Assembly: GCA_054600435.1 (NCBI GenBank)
Contig: BAAIJX010000061.1
Span: 1 to 64,000 of the forward strand
DNA from: Neophaeotheca triangularis
Lineage: Eukaryota
Reading direction: 5' to 3'
Length of the DNA: 64,000 nt
Part shown: piece by piece, positions 20,276-28,569 of the stretch
Numbering within the stretch: position 1 is the first letter of the stretch
Layout: each line of letters starts with the position of its first letter
Notes under the pieces: model-generated
What the model was told of the DNA's origin: nothing
Database searches by the model: none
The model's input: only the letters and a program-made list of their open reading frames with translations
Program-made: the position numbers and the translations under genes

Positions 20276-22096
20276 ATGAAAGCCATTGCGCTGTGTCGGA
20301 ATGCTTCGCGGCGGCTTAGGCCTGATAGATTGTGTGAGCCTTGTTTAGTTTGGAAGAAACAGCAGTGCACCCACCAAGCACCCCAAATCACCCACATTTC
20401 TCATCAAAAAGTTTCTGCTGGTACGCCAATATACCATGCAAGGCACTTCAACACCGTCTCGAACAATGCTACACCGGCCGAGCCGACCATCTACGCCCTC
20501 AGCTCAGCACCAGGCCGAGCCGCCATAGCCGTCATCAGAGTCTCCGGCCCAGACAGTCTCACCGTCTACCACACCCTATGCCCAACCCAACCACCCCCAA
20601 AACCTCGATACGCCACGGTCCGCACCCTCTACACCCCCAACCGCCCTCAAACCCCCGAGAATATCCTCGACACTAGCGCTCTCCTTCTCTACTTCCCAGC
20701 CCCTCACACAGCAACCGGCGAAGCAATCCTCGAACTGCACGTCCACGGAGGCCTTGCCACTGTTCGAGCCGTACTAGCCGCCATCCCCCTCAGCTGCCCG
20801 AGCATCCGCTACGCCGAACCGGGCGAGTTCACACGACGAGCCTTCCTCAACGACCGCCTCGATCTCACCCAAGTCGAAGCCCTAGGAGACACCCTAGCAG
20901 CCACGACGGAGCAACAGCGCCTCCTCTCCGTCCGTGGGACGACAAACTCGCTCGCCCAAACATACGAGACCTGGCGACAGCAACTGCTCTACGCGCGCGG
21001 TGAGCTGGAAGCTCTCATCGATTTCAGCGAGGACCAGCATTTCGACGAGAGCCCTGGGGAGCTCTGCGCGAGCGTCGCCGAGCAGGTGCGGGTTCTGAAG
21101 CGGGTTCTGGAAGTTCATGTTGGTAACGCGGTTAGAGGGGAGTTGTTAAGGAATGGAATCGCGCTATCGTTTCTCGGCGCGCCGAATGTGGGTAAGAGTT
21201 CGTTGTTGAATCGTATTGTTGGGAGGGAGGCGGCAATTGTGAGTCAGGAAGCAGGGACTACGAGGGACGTGGTTGAGGTCGGGCTGGATTTGGGAGGGTA
21301 TTTTTGCCGGTTGGGGGATACGGCGGGGTTGCGGAAGGCAAAGGAGGCAGCGGAAGATGGCGTCGTGGCTGCGGAGATTATCGGGCAGATTGAGAAGGAA
21401 GGGATGCGGCGAGCCAGGGAGCGAGCGGCCGAAAGCGACGTCGTGGTTGTGGTGTTGAGTTTCGAAGACGTCGGCGATACCATTGCTCTAAACCTCGACC
21501 CTGAAGTCCTCGCCACAGCCCGCGGGCTGATCGCAGAAAAGAACAACGTTCTAATCGCCATCAACAAAACGGACCGGCTCGCCCATAACCCGGCCGCCAT
21601 CTCCCACGCTATCGACGAAACCCTCGAAACCCTCACAGCCCTATCCCGCAACCGCATCCACCTCATCTCCTGCCAACCGGCCTCCCCAAACCCCGACCCT
21701 AACCCCACAAACCCCGTCCCCTCAGATCCCAGCGGCATCCAACCCTTCCTGCACGCCCTAACAACCCACTTCGCCGCCCTCACAACCCCGGAGACCCCTT
21801 CCCCATCCTCCGCGCCCGATCCCTCCCTATACCACGCCTCCTTAGGCGCTTCCGAACGCCACCGCCTCCTCCTCTCTCAAACCATCGCCGCTCTCGAGGA
21901 CTTCCTCGCCGAAGTCGCCACAACCCACCCACAAGATGGGGACGAAGGGGTTGAGGAGGCGGATATCGTGCTCGCGGCGGAGTTCCTGAGGGCTGCCGCC
22001 GAGTGTCTGGCGAAGATCACTGGTAAGGGGGTTGGGAGCGGGGATGTGGAGGAGGTGTTGGGGGTGGTGTTTGAGAAATTTTGTGTGGGGAAGTGA
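20276..22096 (+). CDS. MSS1: Mitochondrial tRNA modification GTPase MnmE/GTPBP3
   Basis: TIYALSSAPGRAAIAVIRVSG, AEPGEFTRRAFLN, G1 GAPNVGKS, G2 GTTRD, G3 DTAG, G4 NKTD and C-terminal FCVGK. Confidence 0.95.
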   Translation: MKAIALCRNASRRLRPDRLCEPCLVWKKQQCTHQAPQITHISHQKVSAGTPIYHARHFNTVSNNATPAEPTIYALSSAPGRAAIAVIRVSGPDSLTVYHTLCPTQPPPKPRYATVRTLYTPNRPQTPENILDTSALLLYFPAPHTATGEAILELHVHGGLATVRAVLAAIPLSCPSIRYAEPGEFTRRAFLNDRLDLTQVEALGDTLAATTEQQRLLSVRGTTNSLAQTYETWRQQLLYARGELEALIDFSEDQHFDESPGELCASVAEQVRVLKRVLEVHVGNAVRGELLRNGIALSFLGAPNVGKSSLLNRIVGREAAIVSQEAGTTRDVVEVGLDLGGYFCRLGDTAGLRKAKEAAEDGVVAAEIIGQIEKEGMRRARERAAESDVVVVVLSFEDVGDTIALNLDPEVLATARGLIAEKNNVLIAINKTDRLAHNPAAISHAIDETLETLTALSRNRIHLISCQPASPNPDPNPTNPVPSDPSGIQPFLHALTTHFAALTTPETPSPSSAPDPSLYHASLGASERHRLLLSQTIAALEDFLAEVATTHPQDGDEGVEEADIVLAAEFLRAAAECLAKITGKGVGSGDVEEVLGVVFEKFCVGK

Positions 22097-23041
22097 GGGT
22101 CGGGAGCAAGGTGGATTGTGGTGGGTTTTGTGAGGTTTGAGGGAAGTCTGGGAGGAGGAGGTTAGGAGGTTTGAGGAGTACTTCCTCGCATTTTTTGGAT
22201 GGGCGGGATTTTGATAGTGTGAAATTCAATTGTCCTAGCAGATCGGGAAGGTTGTGCTGTATCTTGTAGTAGAAAGTGTACAAATGCTAAGCAAGCAAGC
22301 GACCCGCGCAGCTTTCGAGGCATCCGATATTTCCGCTCCTCTGGCTACCACGCCCTCACTAAAAACTCCAGATCCAATCCCATCCCATGCCTCCTGACCC
22401 CCATACCAATGCTCCTAAACAAACTCTACCAAGATAAATACAAGAACATGATGCCCAGTACAGACAAGAACGCCCAAACTATGCAATTGCCAACCCGTTG
22501 CCAACCCATACCCGTTTCCGATGCAATGTAATCAGACCTATGACCCAGAAAGCAAGTAAAACAGAACAAAAACGCTTATCAAAACTCCGATAGATGCTGG
22601 CGTTTACCCGCTATGCTTCTCGAGGAATGGTTGAGTCGTTGCAAAAACCCGTAGAAATCGGCGGTTAAGCGCTGGATTCTTGGGAAGAACTCCGGGGAAA
22701 TGCTGCGTGGGGCCGTTGTGTCGCTATGGTTTTCTTTAAAAGAGCGTTTTTTCTGAAAGTGCTGATGCCGGCCTGCCAATGCCTGTTTCGGGAGTGCTCG
22801 ATTGATATTGGGTGCTGTGGAAATGTTGGGGGTCGCTGTAGTCGAGGAGAGAGGAAAAGAGGAACAGCGCCGAGAGAGGAAAGAAGACGGAGCAAAGTAA
22901 GTAGGGAAGACAAGAAAGAGGTACCAGAGTTTTCTCGGCATGAAACCAGCTTCCACGGTCCTCTCGCATCTGATCTTGTTGTCCATTGCCTGCAACGGTA
23001 TAGTAAATCGAAAGATAGAAAGCAGGGAGAAGGCTTGTGAT

Positions 23042-23169
23042 TCATTGGAGGGGAGAGTTGTAGCCGCTGAGAAGGCATTGTTAGCCCACTGTCATCCGAG
23101 AGGCACGAGGAATGTAGAGAGGAGTGGAGCTTACCCTCTTCCATCGTCGTTGCCGCCTTGGGAGCTCAT
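23042..23169 (-). CDS. Putative spliced micropeptide MSSQGGNDDGRGGYNSPLQ (19 aa); exons 23169-23135, 23066-23042
   Basis: Canonical 68-nt intron (GTAAGC...GCTAAC...CAG), A at -3 of the ATG, and the GRGGYN motif shared with the upstream sORF. Confidence 0.6.
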
Positions 23170-23300
23170 AGTTGGGAAGTTTTGTGGTGTGCCAGTTGTC
23201 CAGCTCGGAGAGGAGAAGCAATGGGGTGTATAGCGATAATGATCCACTCGGGCTGCTGTTGTCTCTGAGGCGCGAGGAAACTGATGAAGGTCGGACTGAT

Positions 23301-23324
23301 TTAGTTGTAGCCGCCGCGACCCAT
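23301..23324 (-). CDS. Putative micropeptide MGRGGYN (7 aa)
   Basis: GCA ATG GGT CGC GGC GGC TAC AAC TAA; the first ATG downstream of the TATA box, in good Kozak context. Confidence 0.55.
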   Translation of the reverse strand: MGRGGYN

Positions 23325-23621
23325 TGCCGGAAAAGATTTAATAGGAGATAGGGAAGAAGAAACAGCGAGTCCGGTCTTGCTTTTCCGTGAAGGACAGCAA
23401 GGAACTAGGAAAGTGGAATTGTCTTCGACAACAACGAAATGCTAGTAAAGATTCCGATAATTTGAAGAGTCGTTTGGAAGTGATTGTGCGTCAACAATAA
23501 GGAGAAGAGACCAAAGAAAAAGTCGCTGACTTGTCTTTCCAGCTTGTTGTAGTAGTAGTCGAAGTCGGTGTTGTATTGATACAAATGATGGCGAGCAGAG
23601 AGTAGACTCGGGGTCGAATCC

Positions 23622-23627
23622 TATATA
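23622..23627 (-). promoter_or_regulatory. TATA box of the putative micropeptide transcript
   Basis: GTGTATATAGG on the minus strand, followed by a pyrimidine-rich, ATG-free leader of about 300 nt. Confidence 0.5.
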
Positions 23628-25797
23628 CACGTTCGCCAGCGTCTCCTACTCAAGGTTGATTGAGGATAATACACGCTCGCTCCGGTGAAGGATCATGGAT
23701 GACTGTCTCGGCAGTGCAAGGTACCAGGCACCGTTATCCTTACAGAGTAGCTATACCTAGCTATGACTGCAGCAAATGGCAGTAGCGAGCTGCTGCCCTG
23801 TACAGCAGGCGTGCTATACTAAGGATCACTCACCTCGCCGCATACACCCGCCAACGAGTAGCACAGAACGTTGCGTCTTCTAGAAAAGCTGACGCATCTT
23901 GTCGATCTCATGTCATCCTTGGACAAGATATTGTCCTGCTCAAGCGGCCAGGGACGAGCGAATAGAACCTGGAAGCGAAGAGGTAAATGGACTTGGAGAC
24001 AACGAGGGAAGCATGTCGTCTGTCAGCATGCAGCCCTAGCGGAGGAAAGAGCTGGGAGCGGTTAGCGTGATTCTATTCATAGTCGGTTGCTAGCTGTTTT
24101 GGGCGAGCAGCAACGACCTCCCTTCTACTTTGGGCTGCGAACAATTACGCCAACTTGACTTCTCCTACTCTACGTCGGAAGCAAACTCAAGGCATGCATA
24201 TGCACCTCGCTGTCGAGATATAACTGTCATCGACTGCGCATCCATATCTGGGACAGCTTCTCGTAGCAGGCCCGTCACAGCGCTGGTAGTTCCCCTCCGC
24301 CTAGCAACTAGTAGGTAGCAGTACGGCTGAAAACCGATTGTGACGAAGCACATGCGCCTGAAGAAGAGTTAAGAAGAAGTCAGAAGAAAGCTCGCATAGC
24401 CTCCGGTCATACAGGCCGTCACGCTACTACTGCAGCCCTATGCACCACCGCTATGGTTCTGGAAACGTCAGAAACATGGGAGTCATCGAACACTCCTACC
24501 TAGTACCTGGCCATACGAATGCGGTACCGCACCCTCACCCAATCTTCTGCATACTCATCCCGACGTACCTGCATCCGGAGACGCCTGAAGCTGCTTTCTT
24601 CGTGCTTAAAGTCTTAGTAAGATGCGATGTATGACTCCCAAGTCGTCCACAAAACCATGACCACCTCTTTACATCCTCAGCTCAAATACTCGCCTGCGAT
24701 GCAACCCAACCCACACCTGAGAGCGATTACGACAATCGAAAAGTCTCGGTGACACTTCACAACATAGATATCCAACACTAAGCCTCGCGTCATCTGTACG
24801 AAACTCCCACGCATTACCTAATCCCTAGAGGAGGAATAAGAGGAAATTCCCAAACAACTCATTGATGACCAACTCAGCGCACTCAACCACTCACTCAACA
24901 CAAACACACCACCATGCATTTCCTCCGCCATCCCAATAGCAAAACCGAACAAGCAAATCGCCTGCTTACCCAAACACCGCCACTACCATCAGCTGCCATC
25001 ATGTCATGCAGGTACACTGTACCATCGTGCTAGCAAGAGTGTCGTGCAGTCCCACCCAGTCGATCGGGTAGCATCGGTACTACGGCACTGCCGACGAAGG
25101 ATCGGGGTCCTTTGGAGGTGTCAGCTCGCTGGCTAGGCCCGGATGACTAAAGCATTTAGTGGTAGCTGAGTTTTGCGACGTACCGGTGGGCGCTCGAGGC
25201 CCTATCAGTATCTTTGCGTAGGGTGAGTGGCGTCGATAGCTGGCGCAAGTTGCGGTGGTTCTGTAGTGAGGTCTTCATGGGGTAGCATGTCTCGTGAGCC
25301 CAGGAGCTGACGTAGAAAGATTCGATACCACTGTAGACTCTATACGATTGTAGGATGATTCGGAAGCTTTTCAGGCCACTCATCTCACGCTCTCGTAAAG
25401 GAATCACACCTGCTGACCCCGATTCGTTCAGATAAGACTGAAAATACAAAGCTATCGATCACTCATAGGATATTGTCAACCCCTTCGATTCAAGACAGGG
25501 CGAGAAAAAGAATAGGCACGCTCTTACTCTCAAAACCAAAAAGCAGAACAAAAACATACTAGTGGTATCATCGCACCCCCAGCCATGCCCATACCCATGC
25601 CCATCGCCATGCCAATGTCAAAGCATGCAAAACCCGAAACCCAATCTCGAGAGAGCAAAAGCAATCTTGAGACACCGCAGAAACGCCCCCCAATGCACAT
25701 TACCGACCCGCGAAAACTCTTTTCTCGATCTCTCTTCGAAATCACCAAAAAACCCACCTCTTCCACAACAGGCCCCCTCTTCCACCAAAAGGCCCCC

Positions 25798-28569
25798 TCA
25801 CTCACCCGCATCAGCACCGCCAACGCACCCCTCGCACTTCCACCCCCAAAACCTGCGCTCGAGACCTACGCACGCAAGGTGGAAGACCCGGCGCTTGCAA
25901 GCTCGCGACTCGCACTCAATGGTGCCGCGTCTCTCGTTAACCGCGGGGCGGTTGCAAACGCAGAGGCCGTCATCGGAAAGCTCTGTCGCTGGGGAAGGGT
26001 CTTGAAATTTCCCGAGATCGGAAGAGGGGGTGGGGAGGTTGTCTCTGGAATTGTCATGGTGGGAGTGGGAGGGAAGCGCAGAATAGGGGGTGTTGTTTAG
26101 GTTTTCGTTGGGAATGGGGTCGAGGGTCGTTGTCGAGGCCGCTGAGAGGCGAGTGCGGTTGATTGCGCTGGGTCGCTCGCGGTCCTGTCGTTTTTGGCCG
26201 CGGGGTGTATCTGGCAGTTCGACAAAACCCCTCTCGGCGTCCCATCTGCGGCGGGTGCGGGAAGAGGAGAGACGGCTGCTAGCTGGGCTGTCGGAGCGGG
26301 AGGTGCTGTCGAGAGCGTTTTTTCCGTCGGCCTCTTCTGCACCGACTTCTGGAGACTTGGTGCGCTGTTTCTTCTTCGCCTTTAGAAGGGCGGCTTCCAC
26401 GCTACGGGGCACTTCGCCGCTAGCTGCACGCTTGTGAGCTAGAGCTTCTGAAGCAGCGCGACCCTCGAATGGCAGCTTGCCGATGCCATTGGGTGTAACC
26501 GTTCCTTGTTTCGAAGTACGCCGATGATTTGCCGCTCTATCGGGTCGACCATTCGCAGCGGCTGCTTCTTGCACTAATGAAGGCCGGCCGTCACCGTCTT
26601 GGACGCCATCAACACCCGGAGGCCCAGCGAGCAATTGGTTACAATAGCCAATCGTAGCCTCGTCCACAATGCCATGCCTCCCCAACAACTCCATTTTCAA
26701 GTCGAATTGGTGCCTCCATTCCCTATGCAGCAGCTCCGTCCGGAACTTCCGACAAAACCTGACAAACGCATCGCGAGCCAGAACGTTCGAAGCCGTCTGC
26801 TCAAAGCCCAAATGCTGGTTGAAAGCACGATGAAAGTCCAGACCCGCTTTCGACATGTCCACGACCGCGAGTTCGCTGTGATGGCTTTGTTCTAGCCAAG
26901 CTTCGTCAACTTCTTCGTCGCTCTCGCTGAGCTCTTCGCCGGGCTCAGCGATGCGCTTGGAAGTCGTGCGGTAGAAGCGAACGTCTGGAAGGTTGGGAAC
27001 TTTATGTCGCCGTTTTGCGTCTCTAGTTAATTTGGGTAGGTTTGGAACTTGCGTGGGGTCTTTGTGTTCGCGGTCTCGGACGACTATAGGCTTCTTCTCT
27101 TCTATTCGTCGCATGTTGGTCGAGGATGTTCGGGTCAGCAATTCCTTGGGCAGTCGTCCTCGTCTGGCAGACTGTCTTGTGCGAGTCTGCGTGTGCCCTG
27201 TCCATGTGTCCTCACCTTTAATATACGCCGCTTCATCGAAAGGCCGGTCTGTCGGAGCAATCCACGAGAACTCTAGCTCGGGTGTTGGCGATTCGGAAAG
27301 TCTTTCTATAAGACTGAACGTGATGGTCCTGCTTTCCGCCACAGACTTCGCCTTTGTGCCCTCTCTAACCTCGCATCGGAAATGGCTGTGGTTCACACTG
27401 TAGTGCATCAAGAGTCGTTCAAAGGAAGTGTGTACGATCCCGTCGCCACAAATGACGCATTCCAGGCCATCCCTGGTCATACTGCGCGTGACATCTCCTT
27501 CATTAAAGAGGTATGTAATGCGCACAGTACGCGAGCCTTCAGATTGTGCCAAAGAATCCGGCGTAGGCATCTGGGCGGTCGCACTCTGAAGTTGTCTGTT
27601 GTACCTAGCCAACGGGGAATCCCGTCGCTTTGCCCAGCCCATACTAACTCGTAGACCATAGCCCACGAGTGCTCGGGGTTGGCCATGCCGTTTCAATTCC
27701 AGCAAATCACTCTCCTCTGGACAGGTTGGTAGATTGTCCCAATAAGCGTGTAGAATCGGTGGTGGTGCGTCTCCCCTGTCGTCATCAAGACTCTTGCTTT
27801 CCATGAAATTCAAGATTTGATCGCCATTCTGCGAATCCAGGCATTGCAGGATAATGACCATGCGATAGTCATCCAACACCGTGCTTTCAAAAATTCGCTG
27901 TCCGTTTTTGCGGTGCTCGTTGGTCACCTTGAGCTTGCTGATGTCCACAAAGAAGGGACTTTCAAGCTCTATCGACAAGAAATCGCGGTTTGATTTGCCA
28001 ACAACCACGCCATCGCGAGAAGACTGATAGAGATTCGTCTTCTCTTGAGTCGCCCTGACAATGACATCGACGCGACAGAGGGCTCTGATCGTAATACGTG
28101 GATCAGGCAGAAAAGCATCGAGCTCTTGGTGCTCTCTAAAGATCTTGTCAGCTAAGACAGCATCACGTGACCATCTCCAGCCAAATACTTCCTTCATAAC
28201 ATACCCTATATCATCCCCAAGCCCCTGAATCTCCTTCGCGAAAGGGCTAATCCGTAATCCATCCACTTTCAGCGCCGGTTTCTGGCCCTTTGTAAGATTC
28301 TTCAGCATCTCGAGAGAGGGATACTGCAAATTAGACTGATTACGATTGGGCCTCGTAACGAGCGCATCTGAAAGCAAGAACAACACACCCTCACTCCCGC
28401 TCGCACTCTGTCGCTGTCTCAGTTCGGCAAGCAGTCGTGAATGCCAGTCCAAAGCGCTATTGACGTTGCGCCGTAGAAAGGTAGGTTGTGCCTGGCGCCG
28501 CTTTGCGAGGTGTCGGTCCAGGCTCACGTTGGCCACAAATTTCCTATGAGCGGCTGATGACTCTACCAT
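25798..28569 (-). CDS. SUZ12: PRC2 subunit Suz12-like protein (C2H2 finger + VEFS box) with a C-terminal PHD finger
   Basis: 923-aa ORF with zinc finger CVICG...FERLLMHYSVNH, VEFS-box start RFYRTTSKR...ELSESDEEVDEAWL, and a C4HC3 PHD at the C-terminus. Confidence 0.8.
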   Translation of the reverse strand: MVESSAAHRKFVANVSLDRHLAKRRQAQPTFLRRNVNSALDWHSRLLAELRQRQSASGSEGVLFLLSDALVTRPNRNQSNLQYPSLEMLKNLTKGQKPALKVDGLRISPFAKEIQGLGDDIGYVMKEVFGWRWSRDAVLADKIFREHQELDAFLPDPRITIRALCRVDVIVRATQEKTNLYQSSRDGVVVGKSNRDFLSIELESPFFVDISKLKVTNEHRKNGQRIFESTVLDDYRMVIILQCLDSQNGDQILNFMESKSLDDDRGDAPPPILHAYWDNLPTCPEESDLLELKRHGQPRALVGYGLRVSMGWAKRRDSPLARYNRQLQSATAQMPTPDSLAQSEGSRTVRITYLFNEGDVTRSMTRDGLECVICGDGIVHTSFERLLMHYSVNHSHFRCEVREGTKAKSVAESRTITFSLIERLSESPTPELEFSWIAPTDRPFDEAAYIKGEDTWTGHTQTRTRQSARRGRLPKELLTRTSSTNMRRIEEKKPIVVRDREHKDPTQVPNLPKLTRDAKRRHKVPNLPDVRFYRTTSKRIAEPGEELSESDEEVDEAWLEQSHHSELAVVDMSKAGLDFHRAFNQHLGFEQTASNVLARDAFVRFCRKFRTELLHREWRHQFDLKMELLGRHGIVDEATIGYCNQLLAGPPGVDGVQDGDGRPSLVQEAAAANGRPDRAANHRRTSKQGTVTPNGIGKLPFEGRAASEALAHKRAASGEVPRSVEAALLKAKKKQRTKSPEVGAEEADGKNALDSTSRSDSPASSRLSSSRTRRRWDAERGFVELPDTPRGQKRQDRERPSAINRTRLSAASTTTLDPIPNENLNNTPYSALPSHSHHDNSRDNLPTPSSDLGKFQDPSPATELSDDGLCVCNRPAVNERRGTIECESRACKRRVFHLACVGLERRFWGWKCEGCVGGADAGE

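Follow-up and report, generated by a model that had tools for sequence, protein, structure and literature searches.

The question raised by this locus is whether two very short open reading frames (sORFs), both of which code for the hexapeptide GRGGYN, constitute a gene in their own right. They lie on the minus strand of a 64,000-nucleotide stretch of the Neophaeotheca triangularis contig BAAIJX010000061.1, the whole of which is referred to here as the window, and a preliminary description of this DNA had proposed that they form a fungal multi-sORF peptide gene. That proposal is supported by the finding of two to three tandem GRGGYN-type sORFs in three other taxa (five of five contigs retrieved), one of which shares the position of an intron with the window. 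The best reading of the locus is that of a small minus-strand gene, putatively transcribed independently of its neighbors, with very short GRGGYN frames as its sole conserved content. Judging from the sequence comparisons given below, it is probable that this is a conserved and translated peptide-coding multi-sORF gene.

The first of the two frames, sORF A (23301–23324, minus strand), reads ATG GGT CGC GGC GGC TAC AAC TAA, encodes MGRGGYN and is the sole unspliced GRGGYN-coding site on either strand of the window. The second, sORF B, is predicted to be completed by splicing. Its exon 1 (23135–23169, minus strand; MSSQGGNDDGRG) ends with two bases of a Gly codon (...GGA AGA GG), and a predicted intron of 68 nt (23067–23134, minus strand), with a GTAAGC donor, a GCTAAC branch and a CAG acceptor, follows in phase 2 at the third Gly codon of the motif. 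Exon 2 (23042–23066, minus strand; C GGC TAC AAC TCT CCC CTC CAA TGA) then gives G followed by GYNSPLQ and the stop codon. The predicted spliced product, a 19-aa peptide containing GRGGYN, was reproduced by script, and direct reading of the DNA returned both sORFs, the intron and the TATA box discussed below with the sequences and coordinates first reported for them.

Two further points of the preliminary description concerned the sharing of the motif within the window. The shared hexapeptide had been described as encoded differently in the two copies, which holds for the Gly-Arg codons alone, the remainder (CGGCTACAACT) being common to both copies at the DNA level. The sharing had also been taken as notable in itself, and this could not be upheld. 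The 17-nt repeat that contains GGYN is one of ten direct-repeat families (11–24 nt) in the 3.7-kb gap in which the sORFs lie, and the shared motif within the window is by itself near chance. It is solely because of the related loci that the motif can be regarded as more than chance. A degenerate codon scan for G-R-G/D-G-Y-N, covering both strands of the 64-kb window and of all of these loci, found no GRGGYN or GRDGYN codon sites beyond the copies described here.

Related loci were retrieved by exact match of the 24-nt sORF A in a metagenome contig collection. This search returned five contigs (L001–L005) from three further fungal taxa, and all five carry fungal-type loci with further GRGGYN-type sORFs (one of them GRDGYN), amounting to two to three per locus and arranged in tandem on the sense strand. 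L002 and L003 are close relatives of each other, as are L004 and L005, and together with L001 and the window they represent four taxa. In L001, MGRGGYN-stop is followed after 92 nt by a spliced sORF whose exon 1 ends GGC AGA GG and whose exon 2 reads T GGA TAT AAC GCA CCC TGC CAA TAA, that is GYNAPCQ, and its product has the same form as that of the window (M-x3-GGNDDGRGGYN-xPxQ). The L002/L003 loci consist of MGRDGYN-stop, 98 nt and a 20-codon sORF ending in the exact 24-mer (MGRGGYN). Those of L004/L005 consist of MGRGGYN-stop (GGT CGA GGC GGA TAC AAT TGA), 124 nt, the exact 24-mer, 172 nt and an intronless 15-codon sORF ending NEDDGRGGYN-stop. All four of these spacers are free of ATG. The layout common to the taxa is therefore that of a TATA box, a G-poor and ATG-free leader of ~300 nt, one or two seven-codon sORFs, a spacer of 92–172 nt and a longer sORF of 15–20 codons in which an acidic stretch precedes GRGGYN, and which in the window is completed by predicted splicing.

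The predicted intron of L001 (54 nt; GTAAGT, GCTAAC, CAG) occupies a position identical to that in the window, 35 nt past the ATG and in phase 2. The two introns differ in length (68 nt in the window compared with 54 nt) and have unrelated interiors, and the unspliced frames disagree where the spliced frames agree. In L004 and L005 the equivalent sORF has no intron.

The loci belong to different and distant taxa, since the flanks of the sORFs cannot be aligned, the neighboring MSS1 proteins are only 51–56% identical to that of the window and the best named relatives of the MSS1 proteins differ. The 30-nt flanks on either side of the sORFs are unalignable between taxa, and only the sORFs and the C-terminus of MSS1 match. 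When the window was compared to the contigs by blastn, the 24-mer alone aligned, with additional alignments in L001, L002 and L004. In L001 the end of sORF B exon 1 was matched at 25 of 28 nt over GGNDDGRG and the splice donor, all differences being synonymous, and in L002 and L004 the MSS1 coding region was matched with 63 and 66% nucleotide identity, respectively. At the protein level (tblastn), MSS1 of L002 is 56% identical to that of the window over 522 aa and MSS1 of L004 51% over 552 aa. In the searches for named relatives, the best 8000 candidates by shared words were scored in each case. The MSS1 of the window had its best relatives in Teratosphaeria nubilosa (69%), T. destructans (66%) and Saxophila (65%), which are Mycosphaerellales-type Dothideomycetes, and that of L002 was nearest to Pyrenophora of the Pleosporales (89–91%). 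The best matches of L004 were Glutinoglossum (56%) followed by Viridothelium and Elasticomyces (54%), with none above 56% among the candidates scored. An exact-word search with a micro-ORF can in this way recover orthologs where the surrounding DNA fails to align.

A search of the syntenic interval between MSS1 and a SUZ12-like gene in related fungi had been suggested, and the orthologous loci that lie beside MSS1 keep the ATG, GRGGYN (in one case GRDGYN) and the stop codon. The synteny itself was retained in part: the MSS1 side is kept in all three informative taxa and the SUZ12 side is not kept in the loci that reach upstream.

Evidence for a coding function comes from the pattern of differences among the nine copies present in the four taxa. 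Four of these copies fall outside the selection imposed by the search pattern, and five, among them the second copy of the window, differ from the exact 24-mer. When each is set against the commonest copy, the nine show 17 nucleotide differences in all, and in the synonymous-substitution test that had been proposed for the locus 16 of these were found to belong to synonymous codon changes. If every distinct site variant is counted once, eight of nine are synonymous compared with an expectation of 26% (14 of 54 possible single changes; P = 1.4e-4). Start and stop codons are present in every copy, and the stop follows immediately after Asn in seven of the nine, the remaining two having the four-residue tail xPxQ. 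This pattern indicates that selection acts on the peptide.

The specificity of the search was controlled using a 128-fold degenerate form of the sORF against 596 Gb of prokaryote genomes and against viral contigs. There were four single matches in the 596 Gb, none of them exact and none accompanied by a second copy, and no matches in the viral contigs. Two of the four form the C-terminus of a long bacterial ORF. These are on the related contigs L006 and L009, from Ruminococcaceae-type metagenome-assembled genomes, in which an ORF that stays open upstream for more than 321 codons ends in MGRGGYN, and this C-terminus is taken as coincidence.

Signals that could delimit a transcription unit are found in all four taxa. 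In the window, a TATATA sequence (23622–23627, minus strand) lies 303 nt ahead of the sORF A ATG as a putative core promoter. It is followed by a G-poor (14–16% G), pyrimidine-rich and ATG-free leader (23325–23621, minus strand), a putative 5′ untranslated region, and sORFs A and B are separated by an ATG-free spacer of 131 nt (23170–23300, minus strand). As had been noted from the outset, there is no ATG in the leader or between the sORFs, and the closest upstream minus-strand ATG is 372 nt from sORF A, beyond the TATA box. In each of the four taxa, exactly one TATA-like box precedes the first sORF within 800 nt, at −301 to −423, and in each it is situated where the G content falls from 24–40 to 8–16%. 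The only ATGs in the leaders and inter-sORF spacers of the four taxa are the starts of the sORFs, and 4–8 ATGs occur in the 200–300 nt past the start of the last sORF. A purine is found at −3 in six of nine sORF starts. In L003 and L005 a pyrimidine occupies this position of the first sORF, which would permit some leaky scanning. The TATA box, the drop in G and the ATG-free leader are consistent with a transcription unit and are not proof of one. In such a unit, the micro-ORFs would stand at the places expected of the first AUGs of its transcript.

No 7- to 9-mer was common to the four 510-nt promoter regions. The CT-rich 7-mers ATCTCCT and TCTCTTC are present in all four leaders, probably as an effect of low complexity. 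ATCTCCT was observed 10–25 nt ahead of a sORF start in the window (about 23345–23351) and in L003.

Comparison within the two pairs of close relatives showed that L003 and L002 have no differences from −724 to +98 around the exact sORF, followed by 11 substitutions and three indels in the next 400 nt, and that L005 and L004 have none from −4 to +339 relative to it. Beyond the identical blocks the pairs differ by ~3% substitutions, together with indels, in the next few hundred bases. It seems that the upstream non-coding part is also constrained within lineages, though it cannot be aligned between them.

The possibility that the sORFs are upstream ORFs (uORFs) of a conserved main ORF had been named as the alternative that would overturn the proposal, and no such ORF was found. 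Comparison of the downstream ORFs, of 135 and 159 aa in the window, 120 aa in L005 and 72 aa in L003, showed them to be unrelated between taxa (E from 0.22 to 37), and in six-frame tblastn between taxa only the GRGGYN blocks rose above noise. Within the close pairs, indels of 1 and 8 nt occur inside these downstream ORFs. The 135-aa ORF matched no Pfam family and none of 1.84 billion representative proteins. A conserved downstream main ORF was accordingly rejected, the candidates being unrelated between taxa and broken by indels in close relatives, and the 135-aa ORF being without homologs among the proteins searched.

A further candidate arises because the Asp-Asp codons of the last sORF contain an ATG in another frame (23144, minus strand, in the window), from which ORFs run for 159 aa in the window (without splicing), for 61 aa or more in L001 and for 120 aa in L005. 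This +1-frame ORF was also rejected, as a 1-nt difference in length between the window and L001 past the stop of sORF B shifts its frame, and the frame and stop of sORF B itself are kept. Such ORFs are probably a by-product of GAT/GAC codons and a stop-poor composition.

With these results in hand, the explanations that compete with a peptide-coding gene can be weighed. The sORFs might belong as exons or fragments to a conventional longer protein gene, or represent a coincidence in non-coding DNA. In the window, GGYN does rest on a DNA repeat of 11–17 nt, a size found ten times in the gap, and in three taxa long ORFs in the +1 frame begin at the ATG of the Asp codons. The seven-codon sORFs, however, have no GT donor ahead of their stop codons, and the overlapping long ORFs share nothing past the overlap and are broken by indels in close relatives. 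Chance does not explain how three other taxa come to have four further copies for which the search did not select, given that the degenerate 18-nt pattern is expected at ~4.5e-8 per position (our own calculation, assuming uniform base composition) and that the prokaryote control gave single matches only; we regard this class of explanation as having almost nothing left to recommend it. It might instead be supposed that the conserved unit is a nucleic-acid element, either a protein-binding site in DNA or an RNA motif, in which the reading frames are incidental. Such an element would account for the complete identity of the 24 nt among four taxa with MSS1 DNA that is only 63–66% identical, an identity which codon usage would not predict under peptide selection alone. 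Against it, the other copies vary almost solely at synonymous positions, including a two-base change from CGC to AGA, the ATG and stop are retained in every copy, all copies are on the same strand, and an intron splits one copy in two taxa so that the motif is restored only by predicted splicing. Folding of 84-nt windows at six copies revealed neither a stable RNA structure nor one common to the copies (z from −0.96 to +0.47), and positions 22000–25900 of the window contained no Rfam matches at E up to 1 and no tRNAs. A nucleic-acid element without a coding role is, in our view, very improbable.

More deserving of attention is the idea that the sORFs are translated and act in cis. The nascent GRGGYN peptide would make the ribosome stall or slow down, with a metabolite as a possible trigger, and would control downstream reinitiation or else how stable the transcript is or how far it extends, for example antisense into MSS1. 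Conservation of the peptide sequence is a hallmark of regulatory arrest uORFs too, and the stop directly after Asn in seven of nine copies is what would be expected if termination were the controlled step. Tandem short ORFs and a long leader also resemble the GCN4 arrangement (PMC5972666), and in all three informative taxa the last sORF stop is followed at 650 to about 1170 nt by the stop of a convergent MSS1 gene. This explanation nevertheless lacks a conserved downstream ORF to be regulated, as the candidates are unrelated and indel-broken and the 135-aa ORF has no homologs among the proteins searched. The two B-type copies run four codons beyond Asn, which fits poorly with a stall at termination, and a single copy would suffice where two to three are retained. 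We consider a purely cis-acting role unlikely.

The preferred reading, that of a gene coding for short peptides, has a number of points of its own to contend with. The loci were retrieved by the exact sORF A, and lineages which have lost or altered it would be invisible in a sample of only four taxa. One copy carries a Gly to Asp change (GRDGYN), and the longer sORF is not uniform, with the xPxQ tail occurring in two taxa and the Pleosporales form having a different N-terminal part. One copy is identical at all 24 nt in the four taxa, in loci found by exact match, which is a bias that cannot be quantified, and the other copies within these loci are encoded by different codons. In the MSS1 and SUZ12-like genes of the window, the codons of this copy are used at 19% (GGT), 29% (CGC), 37% (GGC), 58% (TAC) and 65% (AAC). 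Identity of this extent would be rare under peptide selection alone and may reflect an added or alternative constraint at the nucleotide level. The ATG-free leaders are suggestive and are individually weak evidence, being largely due to the G-poor composition: dinucleotide-preserving shuffles expect 0.6–2.7 ATGs per leader (P from 0.04 to 0.53 per taxon), and in the leader of the window the lack of ATG is of weak significance (P from 0.04 to 0.29). Finally, a trans-acting role for the peptide is arrived at by exclusion.

If the gene is translated, this probably takes place by scanning and reinitiation. The 40S subunits would scan the ATG-free leader and translate the seven-codon ORF at the first AUG. 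Owing to the shortness of this ORF they could stay bound to the message, take up a new initiator tRNA while crossing the spacer and restart at the next sORF, and where the context of the first AUG is weak, leaky scanning could add to reinitiation. Methionine aminopeptidase is known to remove Met ahead of Gly, and the short sORFs would in that case yield free GRGGYN. Reinitiation at the next sORF is proposed because it is a process that follows short ORFs and needs a minimum distance; it is reported that reinitiation is appreciable only after short uORFs and that a minimum intercistronic distance is needed for acquisition of the eIF2 ternary complex (PMC5972666).

As to what the peptides may do, by analogy with the arthropod gene tal/pri (tarsal-less/polished rice, also known as mlpt, mille-pattes) they could act in trans as regulatory or signaling molecules whose dosage is amplified by the repeated sORFs, a suggestion that we hold with slightly less than even confidence. 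Action in trans is favored over action in cis because nothing downstream is conserved, the copy number is two to three and variable, two copies have four extra C-terminal residues and the architecture is that of tal/pri. We would put forward with more hesitation that GRGGYN is a bioactive fungal hexapeptide made from two to three start codons on one mRNA, by a gene whose place next to MSS1 would predate the divergence of the two major Dothideomycete subclasses and that is also present in a lineage without a sequenced close relative. A possible clue to its target is that the PY-type nuclear localization signal (PY-NLS) of yeast Hrp1 contains the GRGGYN hexapeptide (PMC8140498, table). Because of this, it may be speculated that the targets belong to the RGG-reading machinery, with the peptide serving as a decoy for an arginine methyltransferase or for receptors of the transportin type.

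The genes on either side of the locus are those named in the preliminary description. An MSS1/TrmE-type GTPase is encoded at 20276–22096 on the plus strand (TrmE_N, E = 8.7e-35; MnmE_helical, E = 4.7e-26), and it is convergent with and downstream of the sORFs in all three taxa with enough sequence (the window, L002 and L004). This kept adjacency leaves an antisense or 3′-end link between the two genes possible. On the other side, a SUZ12-like protein of 923 aa with a VEFS box (E = 1.9e-5; 25 bits compared with a Pfam cut-off of 23) is encoded at 25798–28569 on the minus strand. It had no match in any of the related loci and was absent from the 1–3 kb upstream in L001, L003 and L005. The C-terminus of this protein is Cys/His-rich and zinc-finger-like by eye. 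In the stretch of ~2.1 kb that separates the putative promoter from the 3′ end of the SUZ12-like gene (23700–25797), no ORF beginning with ATG exceeds 75 aa, and neither tRNAs nor Rfam matches are present.

Several known systems invite comparison with this locus. Literature searches, which did not extend to subscription-only papers, gave no earlier description of a fungal multi-sORF peptide gene, and the accessible parts of a review of the fungal ‘hidden genome’ and of a survey of conserved fungal sORFs mention nothing similar. The contexts in which the string GRGGYN was found in the literature were the Hrp1 PY-NLS and a synthetic RGG peptide, the remaining hits being judged by title, and none corresponded to the present one. 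Fungal annotation drops ORFs of seven-codon size.

Among fungal peptide genes, the precursors of alpha-factor-type pheromones, Kex2-processed repeat proteins and the precursors of dikaritin-type ribosomally synthesized and post-translationally modified peptides such as ustiloxin and victorin likewise provide many copies of one short peptide in variable number. These precursors consist of a single ORF with a signal peptide and with Lys-Arg sites between the repeats. In the present loci, by contrast, every copy is bounded by a start and a stop codon of its own, the products are 7–20 residues long, and they have neither a hydrophobic N-terminus or signal peptide nor Lys-Arg. Qsp1 of Cryptococcus and ENOD40 of plants resemble the locus in that very short conserved ORFs are the sole coding content of a small transcript for which signaling has been proposed. 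Qsp1 is, however, a single 24-residue precursor, and ENOD40 has a conserved RNA structure. No sequence similarity to either and no conserved RNA structure was found here.

The conserved-peptide uORFs also share features with the locus. In the arginine attenuator peptide (AAP) of arg-2/CPA1, the MAGDIS peptide of S-adenosylmethionine decarboxylase and GCN4-type leaders, very short ORFs stand in a long leader and either the peptide or the number and spacing of the ORFs matters. Conservation at the amino-acid level, by which such uORFs are recognized, is seen here as well (16 of 17 differences synonymous). The difference lies in that those uORFs precede a conserved main ORF, whereas none was found here, and in that the peptide is repeated two to three times. 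MAGDIS is described as a six-residue uORF (PMC7394265), and serial translation by reinitiation past short ORFs is common to uORF leaders and to the model proposed here (PMC5972666).

There is also a likeness to tal/pri/mlpt, the analogy drawn from the beginning. In that gene, several very short ORFs share a single transcript that is non-coding in other respects; all of them contain the same motif and the last is longer. Copy number varies between species, and the gene escapes standard annotation. In sequence this layout is paralleled here, where tandem sORFs of 7–20 codons with ATG-free spacers and without a conserved long ORF are found in all four taxa, on what is putatively a common transcript. 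The analogy holds for the architecture and does not extend to the motif, which is LDPTGXY in tal/pri/mlpt and GRGGYN/GRDGYN here, with no sequence relationship and hence no homology. The ORFs are also shorter, at seven codons, where TAL is described as an 11-residue peptide (PMC7394265), the host is a fungus, an intron lies inside the motif in two taxa, and a single transcript, its translation and its function are predicted here. On sequence grounds it is an architectural analog of tal/pri, neither a member of that family nor a homolog of it. Essentially one example, that of arthropods, is known of functional genes made up of several tiny ORFs alone, and if the present reading is true the locus would represent the first instance of a tal/pri-like gene beyond the animals, with ORFs among the shortest non-uORF eukaryotic frames under selection at the peptide level. 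It would offer a tractable case in which to ask whether directly translated oligopeptides serve as regulators or signals in eukaryotic microbes, and how ribosomes read micro-ORFs in series.

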